DNA of 64,000 nt from an uncultured Spirochaetota bacterium (GTDB lineage: Bacteria > Spirochaetota > Spirochaetia > SZUA-6 > Fen-1364): positions 23,523 to 87,522 of the forward strand of contig CAWGAC010000020.1 in the NCBI GenBank assembly GCA_963820435.1. The letters are read 5' to 3'. The position numbers and the translations under genes are program-made. Below are positions 20,424 through 28,841 of the stretch, one piece after another. The stretch's first letter is position 1. The number at the start of each line of letters is the position of its first letter. Under the pieces are notes generated by a model. The model had not been told where the DNA came from. It searched no databases and worked only from the letters and a program-made list of their open reading frames with translations.

Positions 20424-20722
20424 TGAGAGATGGCCTCGCATGCTTCGCTTGCCCTCGCTCGCGATCATCTCGATTTTCAGGCAAATGGTCCTAATTCTGG
20501 TCCTACGCAAGGAGCACAGCGTGAAAAGCTAAGGCCGCCAACGAACATATGAATCAGCTGCGCCCCTCGGTCATGGGGGGGCACAAGTTCAGACACGCTG
20601 ATCATTTCTTCGCCCTACCCTTATAGCAGAGCACCCCATCGCGTTCATGCGAATAGCGGCACTTCGCAAACCCGGCCCGTCTTCACGATTGCGTGGCAAC
20701 ATAGGTTTATCACGCGATTGTC
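20424..20722. repeat. ~300-bp repeat family, copy 1 (no adjacent tRNA fragment)
   Basis: About 85-90% identical to 24885..25195 by direct alignment. Shared blocks: cctcgca.gcttcgcttgccctcgctcgcg, ggccgccaacgaaca.atgaatcagctgcgcccctcggtcatg.gggggcacaagttcagacacgctgatcatttcttcgccctacccttatagca and gaatagcggcacttcgcaaaccc. Confidence 0.85.
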
Positions 20723-20830
20723 AAAAGGTTTCTCTTTCAAATAATCGGCCCCAAAGGGCGCAAATTGACGCGGTGACAAGAAGCCCGGCAACAGGAGCCC
20801 GGTCCCTAGCCCACGCGGGGTAAAATCGGT

Positions 20831-23800
20831 CTATTCTGTTGTGCCGCCCGCCGCGAGCTGACCCCAGTAGTTGTTCCCCCAGGTCCAGACCGTGCCGTCG
20901 CTCTTGAGCGCAAGTGTGTGGTAAAGCCCGATCGCGATCGCCGCTACCCCTGAGAGACCCTGCGCCTGCGCCGGTAGGAAACGGTTCGTGGCGGTGCCGT
21001 CGCCGAGCTCGCCCTGCCGGTTGTCGCCCCAGCCCCAGACCGTGCCATCATTCTTGAGCACAATTGTGCGGTTGGCGCCTGCCGCGACCGCTACTACCCC
21101 GGAGAGACCCTGTACCTGCGCCGGCACGGAGCGAGCGGCGCTGCTGAGGCCAAGCTGACCTTCGCGGATCCACCCCCAGGTCCAGACCGTGCCGTCGCTC
21201 TTCAGCGCAACCGTGTGCTCGTATCCAGCCGCGACCGCGACTACCCCGGAAAGACCCTGCACCTGCACTGGAACGGAGCGGTCCGCCGTGGTGCCGTCGC
21301 CAAGCTGGCCTAACCGATTCTCCCCCCAGGCCCAGACCGTGCCGTCGCTCTTCAGCGCAACTGTGTGGGAAAAACCTGCCGCGACCGCGACTACCCCGGG
21401 GAGACCCTGGACCTGCACTGGCACGGAGCGGTCCGCCGTGGTGCCGTCGCCAAGCTGGCCTAACCGATTCTCCCCCCAGGCCCAGACCGTGCCGTCGCTC
21501 TTCAGCGCAACTGTGTGGGAAAAACCTGCCGCGACCGCGACTGCCCCGGGGAGACCCTGCACCTCCACCGGCACGGAGCGGTTCCTCGTGCCGCCGTCAC
21601 CGAGCTGGCCGTCACGGTTCCACCCCCAGGTCCAGACCGTTCCGTCGATCTTGAGCGCAACCGTGTGATGGCCCCCTGCCACAATCGCCTTTATCCCGGA
21701 AAGACCAGGGACGAGGAATGGAAAGGATTGCTGTGTCCAGTTGGCGGCCCCAACTTCCCCGGAACTGTTCAGACCCCAGCAAAAGACCGTGCCGCCAGTC
21801 TGCAATACTGCGGAATGGAGGTCACCGGCTGCGATCATGGCTATTCCGGAAAGATCCGGCACCCGGGCCGGCTTGGATCTGACCGAGGTGGTTTCATAGC
21901 CCAACTGGCCCTTGTCATTGCCACCCCAGGTCCAGACCGTGCCGTCATTTTTCAGCGCAACGGTGTGGGAAAACCCAGCCGCGATCGCGAGCACTCCTGA
22001 GAGACGGCTAAGGCCTCCGTCACCAACCTGGCCATATTCGTTATTCCCCCAGGCCACGACTGTTCCATCGTTCCTCAGCGCAACGGTGTGAGAGTATCCC
22101 GCCGCGACTGCTATCACCCTCAAGAGACCCCACACCTGTACCGGCACGGAACGGTTCGCAGTGCTTCCGTCACCAAGCTGGCCCCAGTCATTCTCCCCCC
22201 AGGCCCAGACCGTGCCGTCGCTTTTGAGCGCAAGCGTGTGAACGGCGCCTGCCGCGACCCCTGCCACGCGAGAGAGATCTTTGACCTGCACCGGTTTTGA
22301 ACTGTCCCTTATGGTACCGTCACCAAGTTCGCCATATAAGTTTCGACCCCAGGCCCAGACCGTGCCGTCATTCCTCAGCGCAACGGTGTGGAAAAGCCCA
22401 GCCGCGATCGCGGCTACCCCGTAGAGACCCTGCACCTCCGCCGGCGCGTAGCGATTCGCGGTGCTTCCGTCACCAAGCTGGCCATGATCGTTCTCCCCCC
22501 AGGCCCAGACCGTCCCGTCGTTCTTGAGAGCAAGGGTGCAATAGTCCCCCGCCGCAATCGCCGTTACCCCCGAGAGATTCGTGACCTGAACCGGCTTGAA
22601 GTGCGCCTGGGTGGTGCCGTCACCTGGCAGGCGCAGGAGATCCAAACCCCAGGACCAGACTGTCCCGTCGCTCTTGAGCGCAACCGTGTGGGCTCCTTCG
22701 GCGGCAATCGCCGTAACCCCTGTGAGCCCGGGAACTTGCGTTGGTGTTGGGCGGTTCGTCGAGTTGCCGTCACCTATCTGACCAGACGTGTTGTCCCCCC
22801 ATGCCCACACCGTGCCGTCATTCTTCAATACTACGGTATGCCAAGAGCCCGCCGCGACCGCCGCCACTCCTGAGAGACCTGTGACCTGGTGCGGTCTGTG
22901 GTGTTCAACCGATTCCGTCGCCGCGAAGCCGGCGTTGATTCCAACCCCAAAACGATGAGGCGGCCGATCGAGCACGAGCTCAATGTCCTCGCTCATGGCA
23001 GATCGATCCATCCGAGCCTCAAGACGCGTCAGGTATATCCCGGCGCCTTCCGGGAAGGGGTTTTTCATCAGCCTGCCAGCGACCTTATGAGAGTCGGGTT
23101 CCTGGTAAGGCCCCTTCCACAGAACGGCCAATCCCCGACCGTCGCTCCCCGCGGTCTCCCGAATGCAGCCTTCCACGTATTTTTCGACATCCACCGATCC
23201 GGGCACTACTCTCTTGAACTCTATAGGCGTTGTCTCACGATTCAACGAAGAGACCGTGCTCTCGGCGATCACATACAGAGTGATCCTCGCAGCATTGACA
23301 GTGCTAACCGAAGAGATACGCAGCGGGAAAATGAGGCGGTCATGGCGGTATCTGATCGTGAACGGCGGGAGAAGCTCATTCTCGTAGTATCGCTTCTCGC
23401 TTGGCTTCAGTTTGACCGCGACAAAGTTCCAATCCCCGTGGATATAGCCATCGAGGACCTCCTGAGCCGCAGGATTGATTTGATAGCCGTTTTCCTTCAT
23501 CCAGCTCAGAAGAGCCAATGCGTCCGTCGCTCCGAGAATGCTCACCTCGTAATGTTTTAGGGTCACGCTATCGTGGGGTCTGACCCCGCCAGAACTCACC
23601 TTTGTTTCAGCGGCACCTTTGTTGTGAACCAGGATGCCCGCCTTGTGAACCGCGTAATTGTGATGGCCTTCGACTTCAAGATTGAACACCTCGACCCTCT
23701 CCTGCCGACTCGAAAGGCCTGTGACGATAAGCCCCTTGCCGCTTATCTCCTTCAGCACGTCACCTTCTCTTAGGTCGCGGGCTTCCACCCATCGCCCAAG

Positions 23801-24451
23801 CACCCCCATCCTTTGTTCTTCTTTCGGGACGTCTCGCGGGGCGGGACGGCTATCGAGTCGGTCTCCGCGGAGGACACAGAAGGGGTGGTTCACGGTGGCA
23901 CGGATCGAGATTTGACCCACCCGGAGGGTGATCATGTCACCCTCGTACTGGATCGACAGGCGCCTGAGGACCCTCGCGAGGGTCCACTTTCCGGTCGCTA
24001 TGTCGCACCCTTGGACCCGTGTCCCAGCCCCGATGCTTTCGATGGCCCGAGGTCCGTCCGCCGTGAGCACCTCGGTTCCGACAGGGAAGCATCCGCCAGA
24101 AAAGGTGCGGACTACGGGCGTCGTGTGCTGATCGAGGAACTTGAACGCGGCTTCCCCGCTCTCGACAGCTTCTGTCACATCCTCGACGGCGGGAGGGACC
24201 GGTGTGGGAATGATCCAGCCGAAGTCTTCGCCCCCGCCGGTGTATCCCGTGGAGAAGGTCATGCTGATCTCGCTGCCATTCTTGATGATGATCGCCCGCT
24301 GGTCGGCGCTCACAGCCACTGACCGTGGGCTGAAGTACCCACCATCCCCCGAGGCCCGGGGGGTGGGAAGCAAGGCCAGACCAACGACCATCAATCCGAT
24401 CCATTTTCCATTTTTCACATTTCGTTTTCCTCGACGCAGAAGATTAATCAT
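20831..24451 (-). CDS. giant secreted protein: signal peptide + DUF2330-like domain interrupted by an intein-like Hint (BIL-type) domain + ~16 RCC1 beta-propeller repeats
   Basis: 1232-aa ORF 20831..24529 (the annotated start at 24529 is TTG; the first ATG is at 24451, followed by signal peptide MINLLRRGKRNVKNGKWIGLMVVGLALLPTPRASG). Contains a GGYF...FGWIIPTPVPP motif, Hint blocks A/B/F/G, and repeated GTVWAWGxNxxGQLGDG units. Intact, no frameshifts. Confidence 0.85.
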   Translation of the reverse strand: MINLLRRGKRNVKNGKWIGLMVVGLALLPTPRASGDGGYFSPRSVAVSADQRAIIIKNGSEISMTFSTGYTGGGEDFGWIIPTPVPPAVEDVTEAVESGEAAFKFLDQHTTPVVRTFSGGCFPVGTEVLTADGPRAIESIGAGTRVQGCDIATGKWTLARVLRRLSIQYEGDMITLRVGQISIRATVNHPFCVLRGDRLDSRPAPRDVPKEEQRMGVLGRWVEARDLREGDVLKEISGKGLIVTGLSSRQERVEVFNLEVEGHHNYAVHKAGILVHNKGAAETKVSSGGVRPHDSVTLKHYEVSILGATDALALLSWMKENGYQINPAAQEVLDGYIHGDWNFVAVKLKPSEKRYYENELLPPFTIRYRHDRLIFPLRISSVSTVNAARITLYVIAESTVSSLNRETTPIEFKRVVPGSVDVEKYVEGCIRETAGSDGRGLAVLWKGPYQEPDSHKVAGRLMKNPFPEGAGIYLTRLEARMDRSAMSEDIELVLDRPPHRFGVGINAGFAATESVEHHRPHQVTGLSGVAAVAAGSWHTVVLKNDGTVWAWGDNTSGQIGDGNSTNRPTPTQVPGLTGVTAIAAEGAHTVALKSDGTVWSWGLDLLRLPGDGTTQAHFKPVQVTNLSGVTAIAAGDYCTLALKNDGTVWAWGENDHGQLGDGSTANRYAPAEVQGLYGVAAIAAGLFHTVALRNDGTVWAWGRNLYGELGDGTIRDSSKPVQVKDLSRVAGVAAGAVHTLALKSDGTVWAWGENDWGQLGDGSTANRSVPVQVWGLLRVIAVAAGYSHTVALRNDGTVVAWGNNEYGQVGDGGLSRLSGVLAIAAGFSHTVALKNDGTVWTWGGNDKGQLGYETTSVRSKPARVPDLSGIAMIAAGDLHSAVLQTGGTVFCWGLNSSGEVGAANWTQQSFPFLVPGLSGIKAIVAGGHHTVALKIDGTVWTWGWNRDGQLGDGGTRNRSVPVEVQGLPGAVAVAAGFSHTVALKSDGTVWAWGENRLGQLGDGTTADRSVPVQVQGLPGVVAVAAGFSHTVALKSDGTVWAWGENRLGQLGDGTTADRSVPVQVQGLSGVVAVAAGYEHTVALKSDGTVWTWGWIREGQLGLSSAARSVPAQVQGLSGVVAVAAGANRTIVLKNDGTVWGWGDNRQGELGDGTATNRFLPAQAQGLSGVAAIAIGLYHTLALKSDGTVWTWGNNYWGQLAAGGTTE
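21180..21630. repeat. three near-identical 150-bp tandem DNA repeats (one RCC1 blade each) inside the giant gene
   Basis: cccagaccgtgccgtcgctcttcagcgcaac...taaccgattctccccccagg recurs at 21181, 21331 and 21481, period 150 bp. The protein shows ...SHTVALKSDGTVWAWGENRLGQLGDGTTADRSVPVQVQGL... three times. Confidence 0.9.
23621..24091 (-). other. Hint / intein-like (BIL-type) domain, aa 147-303 of the giant protein, inserted within the DUF2330-like domain
   Basis: Cys1 codon tgc at 24089-24091 (CFPVGTEVLTADG = block A). TVNHPF = block B (TxxH). VEVFNLEVEGHHNYAV = block F. GILVHN = block G. The +1 codon is AAA (Lys), checked in the DNA. Confidence 0.75.
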
Positions 24452-24776
24452 ATCACAGATCGCCAATCCGAAGGCGCAGGAACTCGCCCACGGTAGGTGC
24501 CGCGCCGCTAAGCCCGCCGAGGAGGACAAGGATCACAACGGGCGAGCCCCCGGAATATTTACGGCACCGTCGTGACCGGGAACGATAGGGATTAGGAGGT
24601 GGGTGTCAGGCTGGGTTGACCCGATTACTTTGCGTCGACAGCAACTGCAATGAATTGGCGAAATCCATGTTTAGGATTCGCAAGGTAGAGGCTATCCTGA
24701 CCGGGGCGGGGTGTAAGTCTTTGCTGCAGCCCGCGCTCTATGCGCCCCGGCCTGTCCCCTCAAATGAGGGCTTGTG

Positions 24777-24825
24777 TATTGAGCCGCCCCGGACTCGAAC
24801 CGGGGACCCACAGCTTAGAAGGCGC
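24777..24825 (-). repeat. tRNA-Lys 3'-half direct repeat, copy 2 (att-like; acceptor 3' strand through anticodon loop)
   Basis: attgagccgccccggactcgaaccggggacccacagcttagaaggc matches 28766..28812 of the intact tRNA-Lys with 1 mismatch. Confidence 0.85.
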
Positions 24826-25195
24826 TCTGAAGCATTTTCTCAGCGTCGCTCGTGTTCGTCCACCCTCGCTCATGTTCATGTATCGAAAGGAGATAGCCTC
24901 GCAGGCTTCGCTTGCCCTCGCTCGCGCTCGGCTCGCTTTTTCAGGCAATTGGTCCTAAATATGGTCCCACGCAAGGAGCCACAGGGAGAAAAGCTGAGGG
25001 CCGCCAACGAACACATGAATCAGCTGCGCCCCTCGGTCATGAGGGGGCACAAGTTCAGACACGCTGATCATTTCTTCGCCCTACCCTTATAGCAAAGCGA
25101 GCACCCCATCGCGTTCCTGCGAATAGCGGCACTTCGCAAACCCGCCTCATTTTCACGATTCGCGTGGCAATGCGAGTTTATCACGCGTATGAGTC
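24826..25195. repeat. ~300-380 bp repeat family, copy 2 (fused to tRNA-Lys fragment copy 2)
   Basis: Aligns with copy 1 (20424..20722). Its 5' 150 bp also aligns with copy 3 (27652..27805). Contains the GC hairpin gcccctc-ggtcat-gagggggc. Confidence 0.85.
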
Positions 25196-25573
25196 AAGGG
25201 GAGGAGGGAGTTTCTGACCCAGAAAGGCCGTTGGCATGAGCAGTCGCGCTGCAAGGAGTTGGTCAATATCGGAAATGGCCATTGTGACCTACAGTGTGAG
25301 CAGTTCTCTGAGGCCGCGCATGAGTGAGCGCTGCCAAGAGCGCTTTGCCGTCTTTCCCGCGGACGATGCACAGCAGGCGGGTGGTCTATTACTACATGAC
25401 TCGCGATGAGGATGGCACAGGGGGTTCGTGTGAAGCCGGTGAAGTATCACCGGGAAGAAGAGAACGGGAAAGGTCGCCCTCAACCCTTCCCGTTCGTCTT
25501 CCCACATTCTCTATGTCACTTTTCAAGGAGGCCTATCAAGCCCCTTTGCGATCGAGTCGCGCATTCAAGGCTC

Positions 25574-27037
25574 TTAGAACCTCTTTACGCGGAACACTCC
25601 GTCCGTGATGGAGTGCGGCGCAAGCGTGCCCTTCTCAAGGACGATGGCGGAGAAAGTACCTTCGATGAAGCCTCCGACTCCTCCCGCCGTTGTCAGGACC
25701 ACAGTGGCGCTGCCGAAGTTCCCGCTCTTGTCGTAGACGGAGTAGCTGAAATCCGGCGACGCGTATTTGACGTCGTGAATCTCGTGGACCCCGTCCGAGA
25801 AGGTGTATGTCCCGGCAGGCGGAGGCTGAGTGCCCGGTTCGCCTATCAGGGTAATCTCTAACTGGGTGGCGTTATCGCTCATGAGTTCCCTGGGCAGCCC
25901 TACTTGAAGTGCAATGATGTGCGTTCTATCGTACACGTGGCCGTCGTGCTCCCAACCAGTCTCCGGGCCTGCCAGCGGAACATTTCCGAACTCCAAAATG
26001 CCTTCTGTGAACTTGACCGGGGTGCCGTCGAACTTGAACGAAGCGAAGTACTCCGACTCCTTTCCTATCTGAAAGCTTGCCGTAGCGCTGCCGGCGCGCA
26101 TCCCGTCCGCCGTGAAGGCCGTCACGTCCAGCCGATAGTACCCCGTATTGAGATCGCTCCCAAAAGTATAGCTCGGCCCTGTTGCCTGGCACACGCCGTT
26201 CAGGTACCACACGTAGAGCACATTCGCCGTTCCATCGCTCACCGACGCAGTTGCCGTCACACTCGTCCCTACTGCAACCGTGGAGGGCACCCCGCTGATG
26301 CTCACCGGTATGGGATTCGCCAGCGCCGGGGTGATGTTCACCACAAGCGTGCCCCTGTTGACATGTGAGAAGTCATAGGCGCCCGATGTGATCTGCCCTG
26401 AGACGATCCGCACCACCTCCACCGCGCCCATGACAGGGAAGTTGTTCTCCATCAATTGCAGCGTCAGGGTGTAGTAGCCCGCCGCTATCGTGGAGCTGGA
26501 ATAGCTGGCCTGGTTGCCCGAGACCGCAAAGTCCAGGCTTGGAGCCGAACCGCTGGGGGCAGCGGATAGGCCTGAGAGAGGCCTGGATCGAGGGGTTCTG
26601 CAGGGAGGCCGTCCAGGTCACCGATAGATTCAAGTCCCCTGTTCCGCCCAGGGGTGTGACGGTGATGGCCAAGGTGGTGTTCTGCCCCGGGCTGACGGTG
26701 GCGATAGCCTGCCCCTGGCCGATGACGGTGCCGTCTGGTGTTCAGCGCATTCACCGTGACGGTCCAGGTCCCGAAGGGCAGTTCCTCCACGGTCACCGGA
26801 TCTCCGCTGGTCGACCGGGAGAATGTCGCACCGTTGGGGCCGTCGCCGATGACGGTGTAGCTTGCCGCATCCATGCTGATGGGTGGCAGCAGGGTCCTGG
26901 CGTTGATGTTGTTCTTGATCGATACGGTCAGCGATGCGCTCTTGACCGACGCCACTGGGTTGGGGCAGCCGGCCAGCAGCACGACAAGCGACGCTGCAAC
27001 GCAGACGGCTAATAGTGAGAGACGTCCTGGTTTTCAT
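25574..27037 (-). CDS. large surface lipoprotein with Ig-like/beta-sandwich repeats, frameshifted (>=3 frames)
   Basis: The N-terminus decodes as MKTRTSL|SLLAVCVAASLVVLLAGCPNP only after a frameshift within the first 10 codons. ORFs 26485..26982, 26373..26672 and 25574..26455 tile one protein rich in T/S/V/G beta-strand repeats. Confidence 0.6.
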
Positions 27038-27607
27038 AATTCCTCCTCACTGCTACGGAGGACGGAGCGACGTTCAAGATTGGCCGATCCGCCATTGAGC
27101 AGCAACTTCTCCAATCGTCCTGAGATGGCTCAGAAAAGGATCCGACACATGCCAAGGGCTCACGGTCCTCTTGTTGTCGAATGAATGTATTGGCCAGTTT
27201 AAGATCCGACACACGTCATAGAATTGTGAATCAATCCAAGAGCACCTGACTTGAGTAGCCTGTTCATAGTCTGTTTTCCTTCAACTTTCCGTTCAACCTT
27301 TCGCCTGTAGCTCGATGACTCTCGCTTGGATCATGCAAAGGGGATGCCAAGAAGAGCGGGCAGTGCTTATTCCTTTTAATGAAATGACTTATTGCTCTTT
27401 GCGGGCACGAGATAACATCTCCACCCCTGCAACGTACGTTGCTCTTCTCAACCTGGGTTGCAGGGGGAGAGAGAATAGACAATAAAGTATTTTGTCGAAT
27501 CCAGTTGAGTCAGAGCCGTCCAGATGCCGTTCTTCCAGCAGCCGGGTATCGCGGATAGACCTGACTGTCAATGCTTATTAATTTCTTACATTACAATAAA
27601 TTATATA

Positions 27608-27648
27608 TGATCCGCCCCGGACTCGAACCGGGGACCCACAGCTTAAAA
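27608..27648 (-). repeat. tRNA-Lys 3'-half direct repeat, copy 3 (att-like)
   Basis: tgatccgccccggactcgaaccggggacccacagcttaaaa has 38/38 identity to the tRNA-Lys 3' portion, apart from 1 mismatch in the acceptor strand. Confidence 0.85.
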
Positions 27649-27651
27649 ATC

Positions 27652-27805
27652 GTTTCGAGCCATTTTCTCCCCTTCGCTCACCTTCGCCTACCCTGGGCTA
27701 TGTTCACGCGCTGAAAAGAGATAGCCTCGCAGGCTTCGCTTGCTCTCGCTTGCGCTCGGCTCGCTTTTCAGGGCAATTGGTCCTAAATGTGGTCCTACGA
27801 GAGAG
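27652..27805. repeat. repeat family copy 3 (5' portion only; diverges after ~150 bp)
   Basis: gagccattttctcc...aaagagatagcctcgcaggcttcgcttgctctcgcttgcgctcggctcgcttttcagggcaattggtcctaaatgtggtcctacg aligns with 24826..24975. Confidence 0.8.
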
Positions 27806-28078
27806 GCCGAAATCTAAGGTCCGTGTGCTATAGGTATTCTGGTATTGACATGTGACTTGGCGAGCATACACTGAAGCTAAAATGTGCTGACACGCCTTGG
27901 CGAAGTCTCTCGTGAAGTGAGGTGACTTCGGTGTCGGACTCTCGATCTTGTATTGCCCAACCCTTAAAGCATCGACACCACGTCCTTCCGAAAGATCGCG
28001 GCCCACCTCCTAATCTCGATGGAGTGCGAATGCACCGGGACTTCAAGCACTGTCAAGCAGATTATGTAGGAGAGAAAA

Positions 28079-28521
28079 ATGAGAAAGAATTCTAAGTTTC
28101 TTTTCAAAATTCTTCCATTAGCGTTTATGTAGCGTTTATGAGCGCCCTGACTGTTCTCTCTCTCGCCGGATGCCCACCCCCCCACGAGACTCCCGAATTC
28201 GTCGGTACGTGGTTTGGACAGTTCCCGCAAACTGGGACGGCCACCGTTACGTTTACTGAGACAACGTGTACAATATTTACTACCGGCAATTTCCCTGATA
28301 CTGAGACCGACACTGGAACGATTACATTCGACACATCTCTGAAGCACATCCAATGCGTAGTCGCAACAGTCACACGTACGGGCGGCGGAACGTCGACGAC
28401 AGCGCCGGGAGATACATTCTACATGTTGTACTCTCTCAGCGGCACTACTCTAACGATGGCGTCGAGCAAAACAGGGTACCCCGTTGACCTCAGCGGCGGG
28501 ATGGCGATGACCAAGCAGTAG
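28079..28521 (+). pseudogene. low-GC lipoprotein gene whose N-terminus is disrupted by an 11-bp tandem duplication (tagcgtttatg x2 at 28119..28140)
   Basis: MRKNSKFLFKILPLAFM-stop. After the duplicated unit, ORF 28138..28521 continues MSALTVLSLAGCPPP (lipobox). Removing one unit restores MRKNSKFLFKILPLAFMSALTVLSLAGC. GC is much lower than the genome average. Confidence 0.6.
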
Positions 28522-28768
28522 GGACGGCGACAGCCACAGGAGACGGACTCGCCTTTCTGAGCCGGGTTGCGACCAGGAGGAGAATAAGGAGTTGCCGAGG
28601 TAAGGCAGCGTACGGCTTGCGGCCCTTCCAGGTTCCGGGCCGGAACTGGGCAGGGGATAATCAACTACTGCGCCCACACCGGCGGGCCGTGCTCCTGTCT
28701 CTTGTAAAAAGAGGAAGCGGTGGCCCGGAACCCCCGCACCGCTTCCAAATGCTCCAAATAACTTAAAT

Positions 28769-28841
28769 TGAGCCGCCCCGGACTCGAACCGGGGACCCAC
28801 AGCTTAAAAGGCTGATGCTCTGCCAACTGAGCTAGCGGCCC
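28769..28841 (-). tRNA. tRNA-Lys (anticodon UUU)
   Basis: Reverse complement is GGGCCGCTAGCTCAGTTGGCAGAGCATCAGCCTTTTAAGCTGTGGGTCCCCGGTTCGAGTCCGGGGCGGCTCA. D-arm GCTCAGTTGGCAGAGC, anticodon loop CUUUUAA, T-loop GGTTCGAGTCC, 7-bp acceptor stem. No encoded CCA. Confidence 0.9.

Follow-up and report, generated by a model that had tools for sequence, protein, structure and literature searches.

A type-A bacterial intein-like Hint domain nested in the DUF2330 domain of a probably exported RCC1-repeat protein, encoded on a strain-variable cassette near tRNA-Lys in an uncultured spirochaete

The stretch of DNA analysed here, hereafter the window, comprises 64,000 nucleotides (nt) from an uncultured Spirochaetota bacterium (contig CAWGAC010000020.1, positions 23,523 to 87,522, forward strand). 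Its minus strand carries a large gene whose product consists, in order, of a predicted signal peptide, the N-terminal part of a DUF2330 domain, a Hint domain of 157 amino acids (aa), the C-terminal part of DUF2330 and 14 RCC1 blades. The protein belongs to an undescribed family in which a Hint domain of a known kind, the type-A bacterial intein-like (BIL) domain, is nested family-wide in an uncharacterised exported domain, and in this genome the gene lies on a strain-variable cassette. Residues are numbered from the ATG at 24451. The features of the gene are:

20831-24529, minus strand: full open reading frame (ORF), 1232 codons from TTG; stop codon at 20831-20833
24451 (ATG, 1206 aa) or 24418 (GTG, 1195 aa), minus strand: likely start of the coding sequence
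24347-24451, minus strand: predicted Sec signal peptide, residues 1-35, which would be cleaved ahead of the invariant DGGYF, from sequence features and conservation among homologues
24092-24346, minus strand: DUF2330 N-part, residues 36-120 (85 aa), with beta strands, helix 96-110 and a flexible linker ending in SGG
23621-24091, minus strand: Hint domain of the type-A BIL / PT-HINT kind, residues 121-277 (157 aa), residue +1 being Lys278
22937-23620, minus strand: DUF2330 C-part, residues 278 to about 505, opening with the flexible linker KGAAETKVSS
20834-22894, minus strand: RCC1-like repeats, 14 blades, one of them short (41 aa) and the last partial
21230-21529, minus strand: near-identical adjacent blade pair, residues 975-1074, a recent 150-bp tandem duplication

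ORF analysis confirmed that the gene is intact, with a single frame of 1232 codons that yields 1206 aa from ATG 24451, as initially annotated. The GTG at 24418, which has GAGGAAA 7 nt upstream, is as plausible a start as the ATG and would give a 24-aa leader similar to the leaders of homologues. The sole candidate from a promoter and terminator scan was a weak promoter-like site at 24609-24582, and a search for paralogues of the gene within the window found none. L001 (ENA ERZ25039477), assembled independently from a different sample, runs colinear with positions 26815-20806 of the window, over 6 kilobases (kb), at 98.5% identity, and holds the same number of repeats. It differs from the window by 80 substitutions and 10 single-base indels, and because of these indels the gene is called there as four pieces. 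Since L001 is colinear and equal in repeat number, the ORF is not an assembly chimera, and a mis-assembly across the 150-bp repeats, a concern raised with the initial annotation, is excluded. Together with L001, the 74 homologous Hint-DUF2330 junctions found in databases make an assembly artefact at the junction unlikely.

On inspection, the leader combines a basic n-region with a hydrophobic core and with the residues A-S-G ahead of the invariant DGG[YF]F, a motif whose position after a hydrophobic leader is conserved in all homologues; these features make export of the protein plausible. The motif forms the predicted mature N-terminus (residues 36-40, nt 24332-24346). It is nearly invariant across the family, with the Asp and first Gly invariant in alignment A1, and it was modelled with low confidence. 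Its conservation suggests a functional free N-terminus.

Pfam searches of the intact protein placed PT-HINT at residues 121-277, DUF2330 at residues 278-492 (profile positions 97-278 only) and 14 RCC1 repeats. When residues 121-277 were deleted in silico, a single continuous DUF2330 match appeared that spanned residues 36-335 and profile positions 7-278 (PF10092, 102.4 bits, the cut-off being 24.7). On their own, the first 120 aa reached 16 bits against DUF2330 (E 0.006). The profile thus matches across the excised site, with DUF2330 on both flanks of the Hint domain, and the nested domain order proposed in the initial annotation is correct. Structure prediction was run on residues 1-522: the AlphaFold2 model (pLDDT, the predicted local distance difference test score, 82) is confident for both Hint and DUF2330, and disorder is confined to the linkers 114-120 and 279-288. 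The Hint enters DUF2330 after helix 96-110, in its only long, flexible loop, which is disordered and more variable than any other.

The Hint domain spans exactly 157 aa, starting with CFPVGTEVLT, containing T186-V-N-H189 and ending in ILVHN277 directly before Lys278. Its catalytic set comprises Cys121, the TxxH motif T186-x-x-H189 and H276-N277, without a nucleophile at +1. Type-A BIL domains end in His-Asn and lack a +1 nucleophile (PMC4031507). We therefore class the domain, on the strength of its Cys1, TxxH, C-terminal His-Asn and missing +1 nucleophile, as a type-A BIL / PT-HINT domain in an intein-like topology rather than as a canonical intein. The fold is best matched by a Clostridium thermocellum type-A BIL domain, which was also the closest sequence match among solved structures (2LWY, E 1e-8). 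NCBIfam found nothing but intein terminal motifs, the C-terminal one at 21 bits against a cut-off of 15.6. The earlier description of an intein-like Hint of 157 aa was accurate as to the fold and the exact length; the domain, with its +1 Lys, is a type-A BIL / PT-HINT and not an intein.

To describe the junctions we compiled 185 copies from the Hint clade, comprising 74 in DUF2330 proteins, 18 in serpins and 93 in other hosts:

DUF2330 hosts (n = 74): Cys1 in 74, His-Asn in 73, Gly at -1 in 67; residue +1 is Lys in 53, Gly in 16, Ser in 1, Cys or Thr in 0
Serpin hosts (n = 18): Cys1 in 18, His-Asn in 18, Gly at -1 in 17; residue +1 is Lys in 8, Gly in 5, Glu in 2, and Gln, Met and Asn in 1 each
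Other hosts (n = 93): Cys1 in 93, His-Asn in 93, Gly at -1 in 45; residue +1 is Lys in 56, Asn in 17, Arg in 10, Thr in 3, Ser in 2

Cys1 is present in all 185 copies and His-Asn in 184 of the 185, and the length does not vary from 157 aa. In an alignment of 25 Hint sequences (A4), at least 90% of the entries retain the block-B Thr and His. Gly precedes the domain in 91% of DUF2330 hosts and 94% of serpins, against 48% of the other hosts.

The first 522 aa, used as a query, retrieved 110 proteins, metagenomic and mainly from Spirochaetota, that share the leader, the invariant mature N-terminus DGG[YF]F and DUF2330, and most of these bear the 157-aa Hint at the identical site. The architecture, initially taken to be novel, is indeed undescribed in the searchable literature, but it is not unique, as at least 110 proteins of the family are present in databases. 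The C-terminus is exchangeable among the relatives: it consists of RCC1, ankyrin or NHL repeats or of a short tail only, which in several relatives resembles a hydrophobic C-terminal anchor. Several relatives have the full combination of DUF2330, Hint and RCC1. The genome matches were to Spirochaetota metagenome-assembled genomes (MAGs) and one Fermentibacteria MAG, with distant DUF2330 proteins in Phycisphaerales. The flanking sugar ATP-binding cassette (ABC) proteins have identical counterparts at NCBI, the MAG proteins MGD0728086.1 and MGD0728085.1, whose annotation reads 'Spirochaetia bacterium'.

Relatives that lack the insert, which the initial annotation had proposed to look for, do exist and can be aligned straight over the Hint site. 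These Hint-less homologues, with RCC1 tails (for example P0058, P0063, P0065, P0082 and P0085) or ankyrin tails, align on both flanks and have a short Gly-rich loop in place of the domain. In a rough neighbour-joining tree of Hint-excised domains, which is weakly resolved, members with and without Hint are interleaved, as are RCC1 and ankyrin members.

The insert-free loop, equivalent to residues 120/278, often reads GGWG[KAR] (P0058, P0063, P0065, P0070, P0079, P0092), with a conserved Trp at the position of the Hint Cys1; this may be either a trace left by a lost Hint or a motif with a function. One DUF2330-ankyrin protein, P0057, keeps only the last ~45 Hint residues (...VYHIEVESYHNYAVNRIGILVHN, then GGK), and its Cys1 and the preceding helix are gone. 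What is left appears to be a degenerate Hint, capable at most of cleavage on its C-terminal side. Two DUF2330-Hint-ankyrin paralogues lie in tandem in L014 (7001-11520), and in L015 (1-278) a protein with VIT and PT-HINT domains is found close to a DUF2330-Hint gene, so that genomes in this group hold several Hint-bearing exported proteins.

The Hint clade extends well beyond DUF2330. A single-sequence search with the Hint domain gave only 6 extra matches, and an exhaustive profile search was required: run against 1.84 billion representatives, it found 683 proteins at E <= 1e-30. Of the best 150 of these 683, 127 representatives were new relative to the first homologue search, and 104 of the 127 were neither DUF2330 proteins nor serpins. 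A Pfam tally of 79 of these proteins included VWA domains (7), RHS (5), CsgG/LpoB-like lipoproteins (4), LVIVD (3), the toxin domains Ntox33, WHH and colicin-DNase (3 each), VIT and others. The mean similarity of DUF2330-hosted Hints to serpin-hosted ones (56%) is close to that among themselves (55%). The clade is a cassette spread widely among exported and polymorphic proteins, and it has settled in DUF2330 loops too. In P0197, P0165, P0121 and P0192, three to eight Hint domains are joined in direct tandem through ...VHN-KGG-CF... junctions.

At least 18 serpins carry the same 157-aa Hint in the reactive-centre loop. In P0096, P0098-P0100, P0104-P0107 and P0111 it comes right after the hinge EGTEAAAATA.G, and it ends 3-5 residues ahead of a Lys or Arg that is the likely P1, as predicted from sequence. 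By our own count from the P15 Gly to the s1C Phe, the serpin loop reaches its canonical 22-26 residues only if the Hint is removed and the flanks are ligated, which argues that this clade can splice. A literature search for a Hint or intein in a serpin reactive-centre loop found nothing relevant. The wide variety of hosts in the clade weakens the idea that the Hint is specifically aimed at inhibitor loops.

The repeat region scores 536 bits against PF00415 and 686 bits against PF25390. It comprises 14 tandem repeats of ~50 aa, both by Pfam and by a listing of the blades, rather than the roughly 16 first counted. Fourteen is a multiple of 7 and would be enough for two seven-bladed propellers. 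A single residue separates blade 975-1024 from blade 1025-1074, and at the DNA level the two share 96% identity over 182 nt, which bears out the very recent 150-bp duplication noted at the outset. The blades are still duplicating, and the gene is a fast-changing accessory locus.

The gene lies in a region that varies between strains and is anchored at a tRNA gene. Its features are:

28769-28841, minus strand: tRNA-Lys (UUU), anchor of the variable region
20717-25270: strain-variable islet, 4.55 kb, present in the window and in L001, missing from six contigs
20427-20716: repeat R1, 89% identical to R2
24824-25187: repeat R2, internal to the islet; 24890-25187 match R1 (~300 bp)
27608-27799: repeat R3, matched by R2 plus the adjoining tRNA-Lys half-copy; the R2/R3 match spans 24780-24971
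24778-24823, minus strand: copy of the tRNA-Lys 3' half, 46 nt, 98% identical, an integration scar
27606-27651: second copy of the tRNA-Lys 3' half, 46 nt, 87% identical

In L019-L023 and L025, six contigs that come from other samples and are 93-96% identical, the position corresponding to 25271 is joined directly to 20716, without 20717-25270. The gene under study is the only gene of that segment, and no integrase was found in it. The single repeat of the empty-site contigs resembles R2 over its first ~50 nt and R1 over the remainder, a hybrid that is the signature of recombination between R1 and R2. The six empty-site contigs and the tRNA half-copies support the initial description of the gene as the sole cargo of a small tRNA-Lys-associated islet; it is a cassette that is acquired or shed when ~300-bp repeats recombine in this variable region linked to tRNA-Lys.

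Other traces of mobility surround the cassette. Segments 27606-28766 and 24824-27605 are each bounded by a copy of the tRNA-Lys 3' half and share ends of ~190 bp (R2/R3). They resemble the remains, in tandem, of elements that integrated at tRNA-Lys, and no integrase is left in the window. A phage-type integrase occurs about 4.5 kb beyond the gene in L001 only, where it follows two DDE insertion sequence (IS) transposase genes (integrase and transposases together at L001 6074-9531 and 10571-11818); L027 has an ORF at 20-910 that, judged from its sequence, is IS4/IS1634-like. In both L001 and L027, which are closely related strains, the IS transposase genes start 10-25 bp past the stop codon of the gene, whose 3' end is a recombination hot spot. 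On the other side of the gene, a gene encoding a lipoprotein, for which there is a weak PKD-like match (25574-27037, minus strand), is split into three overlapping ORFs in the window, while it is intact, at 483 aa, in six related contigs (L019 925-2376). This agrees with the broken genes mentioned in the initial annotation, and the split lipoprotein gene reflects either a pseudogene or indel errors of assembly.

With a probability of about 0.68, we interpret the gene as a cassette-borne accessory gene for a Sec-exported protein, made of DUF2330 and two RCC1 propellers, from which the nested BIL-type Hint removes itself. The architecture, the catalytic residues, the flexible tethers and the insert-free orthologues are observed, and from the sequence motifs we infer the following excision chemistry. 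Folding and processing of the Hint would follow Sec export. Cys121 would form a thioester at the Gly120-Cys121 bond, and cyclisation of Asn277 would cut the Asn277-Lys278 bond. A branched ester would not be possible, because the +1 Cys, Ser or Thr is missing; instead, the freed amino group of Lys278 could attack the thioester, giving a spliced loop that reads ...SGG-KGAAE... Alternatively, the thioester could be hydrolysed, which would leave a nicked, two-chain DUF2330 made of an 85-aa N-fragment and the rest, the chains presumably being held together inside one predicted domain. By either route the Hint would be lost, and the mature protein would consist of DUF2330 and 14 RCC1 blades. The chemistry proposed for type-A BILs has the same elements, namely an N-terminal thioester, Asn cyclisation and ligation by the freed amine, with cleavage products dominating (PMC4031507).

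Two observations favour real excision at both junctions: the -1 Gly is enriched in the nested hosts, DUF2330 proteins and serpins, and the serpin loop has a normal length only after Hint removal with ligation. The mature protein would most plausibly be an extracytoplasmic binder, a role suggested by the recurrence of a constant DUF2330 with swappable RCC1, ankyrin or NHL repeats.

Several points weigh against this interpretation or limit it. A second review is more sceptical about ligation by type-A BILs (PMC7765530) and disagrees with PMC4031507 on ligation efficiency, so the product may be either spliced or nicked. That RCC1 propellers bind targets on a host or cell surface is an assumption, which bears on the binder role. 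A literature search for DUF2330 found no paper, and no partner genes recur across five homologous loci. The exact protein, with three start choices tried, had no match in a 15-billion-sequence collection, which may mean that public annotation names the gene differently or treats it as a pseudogene.

The alternative that survives best, though we consider it unlikely, is that the protein contains a built-in suicide-inhibitor loop. DUF2330 would be a bacterial counterpart of the fold of p35, the baculovirus caspase inhibitor, the Hint would sit at the reactive-site loop, and autoprocessing would arm, mask or fire a protease trap, as either a pro-inhibitor switch or a thioester built into the bait position. 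In length the N-fragment is near its p35 counterpart (85 against 87 aa). The insertion loop of the DUF2330 models comes after a helix, as does the p35 cleavage loop, with its site at Asp87. The occurrence of the same Hint clade 3-5 residues before a predicted P1 in at least 18 serpins points the same way. However, the equivalence of the loops is inferred from the order of elements only. Foldseek, run with the DUF2330 model on the PDB, found no significant match, with p35 not among the results, and hhalign gave a probability of 0.1-0.2% for DUF2330 against p35, with the single sequence and with the family profile. Pfam Baculo_p35 did not match the intact or the Hint-excised protein, and a p35 homologue search returned only baculoviral p35, at 65% identity or more, without bridge sequences. 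Moreover, the hosts of the Hint clade are mostly unrelated (VWA, RHS, toxins, lipoproteins), and tolerance of Gly-rich loops is a simpler account of its distribution; the Hint-less loops carry the conserved GGWG motif and not a hypervariable bait. A local match between DUF2330 and p35 (EHYEVS/EHYSVS), seen with the single sequence, was not reproduced with the p35 family profile and was dropped. A PDB profile search with the untrimmed alignment A1 was swamped by RCC1 and ankyrin structures and was uninformative on DUF2330. Previous work describes the suicide-substrate mechanism of p35 and states that its cellular homologues are unknown (PMC3252740), and lists the p35 fold (SCOP b.28.1) as virus-specific (PMC5671483). 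The broader proposal, in which DUF2330 is the cellular counterpart of the p35 scaffold and the BIL Hint was recruited, within the same lineages, into the bait loops of both DUF2330 and serpins, two unrelated trap-type inhibitors, so that self-processing controls the trap, is slightly more doubtful still. If true, it would represent a new regulation of extracellular protease inhibitors. A p35-like fold may be the first structural lead for DUF2330 and, if it holds, would bear on the origin of p35. Neither this possible fold nor the mobility of the Hint clade figured in the initial annotation.

Less probable is a transfer reaction of the Hedgehog type, in which an external nucleophile (a lipid, a glycan or a peptidoglycan amine) would resolve the Cys121 thioester and covalently anchor the N-fragment, or the whole protein through it, to the envelope. 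The junction SGG/CFP matches the GCF site of Hedgehog, the Pfam model for the Hedgehog-type Hint matches 35 of the 79 clade members, and the -1 Gly is commoner in nested hosts (91%) than in other hosts (48%). Against this, the domain is a minimal one of 157 aa in which the sterol- or adduct-recognition region is missing, and the invariant C-terminal His-Asn would lead to cleavage at both ends, in the manner of inteins and type-A BILs, and not to the single N-side reaction of Hedgehog.

Improbable to a greater degree is a polymorphic toxin, in which PT-HINT would free a C-terminal effector as in Rhs, CdiA and MafB-type systems. The best Pfam Hint model is indeed Pretoxin HINT, and RHS, Ntox33, WHH and colicin-DNase proteins are among the close clade relatives. 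But here the Hint lies near the N-terminus within a folded domain, the C-terminus consists of RCC1 repeats with no toxin domain, repeat R1 and a rhodanese gene, not an immunity-like gene, follow downstream, and the Hint-less orthologues keep the same architecture.

The last candidates, a canonical class-1 mini-intein with four-step splicing or an assembly chimera across repeats, are the least credible of all: the NCBIfam intein C-terminal motif is above its cut-off and Hint-less alleles exist, as for inteins, but residue +1 is Lys278, Cys or Thr never occupies +1 among the 74 DUF2330-hosted copies, the insertion site is a variable loop and not a conserved active-site motif, the homing endonuclease is missing, and a chimera is ruled out by the colinear L001 and the 74 homologous junctions.

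As interpreted here, a self-removing BIL domain in an exported accessory protein, the system is of use in two respects. What BIL domains do biologically is still debated, and this family provides more than 70 natural type-A BILs that are fixed, in the manner of inteins, at a single loop of an exported, folded domain, with insert-free orthologues as the reference for the spliced state. It is a test system for BIL chemistry, and it allows one to ask whether nucleophile-free splicing occurs outside the cytoplasm; the Hint-bearing serpins, for their part, could inhibit only if the Hint ligates the reactive-centre loop. The locus also records the turnover of surface proteins in uncultured spirochaetes, through cassette gain and loss, blade duplication and swapping of C-terminal modules.

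Comparison with known systems places the Hint domain nearest to the C. thermocellum type-A BIL (2LWY; Pfam PT-HINT, PF07591), with which it shares Cys1, TxxH, the C-terminal His-Asn and the lack of a +1 nucleophile. Like type-A BILs in general, it resides in a secreted, non-conserved bacterial protein. Those domains, however, sit in a hypervariable linker or before a toxin, whereas this one occupies one fixed loop of a folded domain that has Hint-less orthologues, and the clade differs from the usual type-A BIL in its fixed length of 157 aa with a conserved insert, RP.P.D.P..EQ....GRWVEARDL. Canonical mini-inteins are similar in their insertion within a host domain, their insert-less alleles and their invariant catalytic residues, upheld by the need to excise; they differ in having a +1 Cys, Ser or Thr, whereas the domain described here lacks this residue and a homing endonuclease, has an exported accessory host and occupies a variable loop. 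The Hedgehog autoprocessing domain has a comparable Gly/Cys-Phe-Pro junction and also works on a secreted protein, but in contrast to it the present domain ends in His-Asn, has no sterol-recognition region and is internal rather than C-terminal. Baculovirus p35 resembles the host domain in its size of about 300 aa and in having a helix and then an exposed loop ~85 residues from the N-terminus; there is no detectable sequence similarity, Foldseek is negative, and the DUF2330 protein is extracytoplasmic and bacterial. For the repeats, the beta-lactamase inhibitor BLIP-II was the sole bacterial secreted RCC1-like protein met in the PDB profile search (E 2e-9). It too bears RCC1-type blades on an exported bacterial protein, but it has 7 blades, whereas the protein described here has 14, fused to DUF2330.

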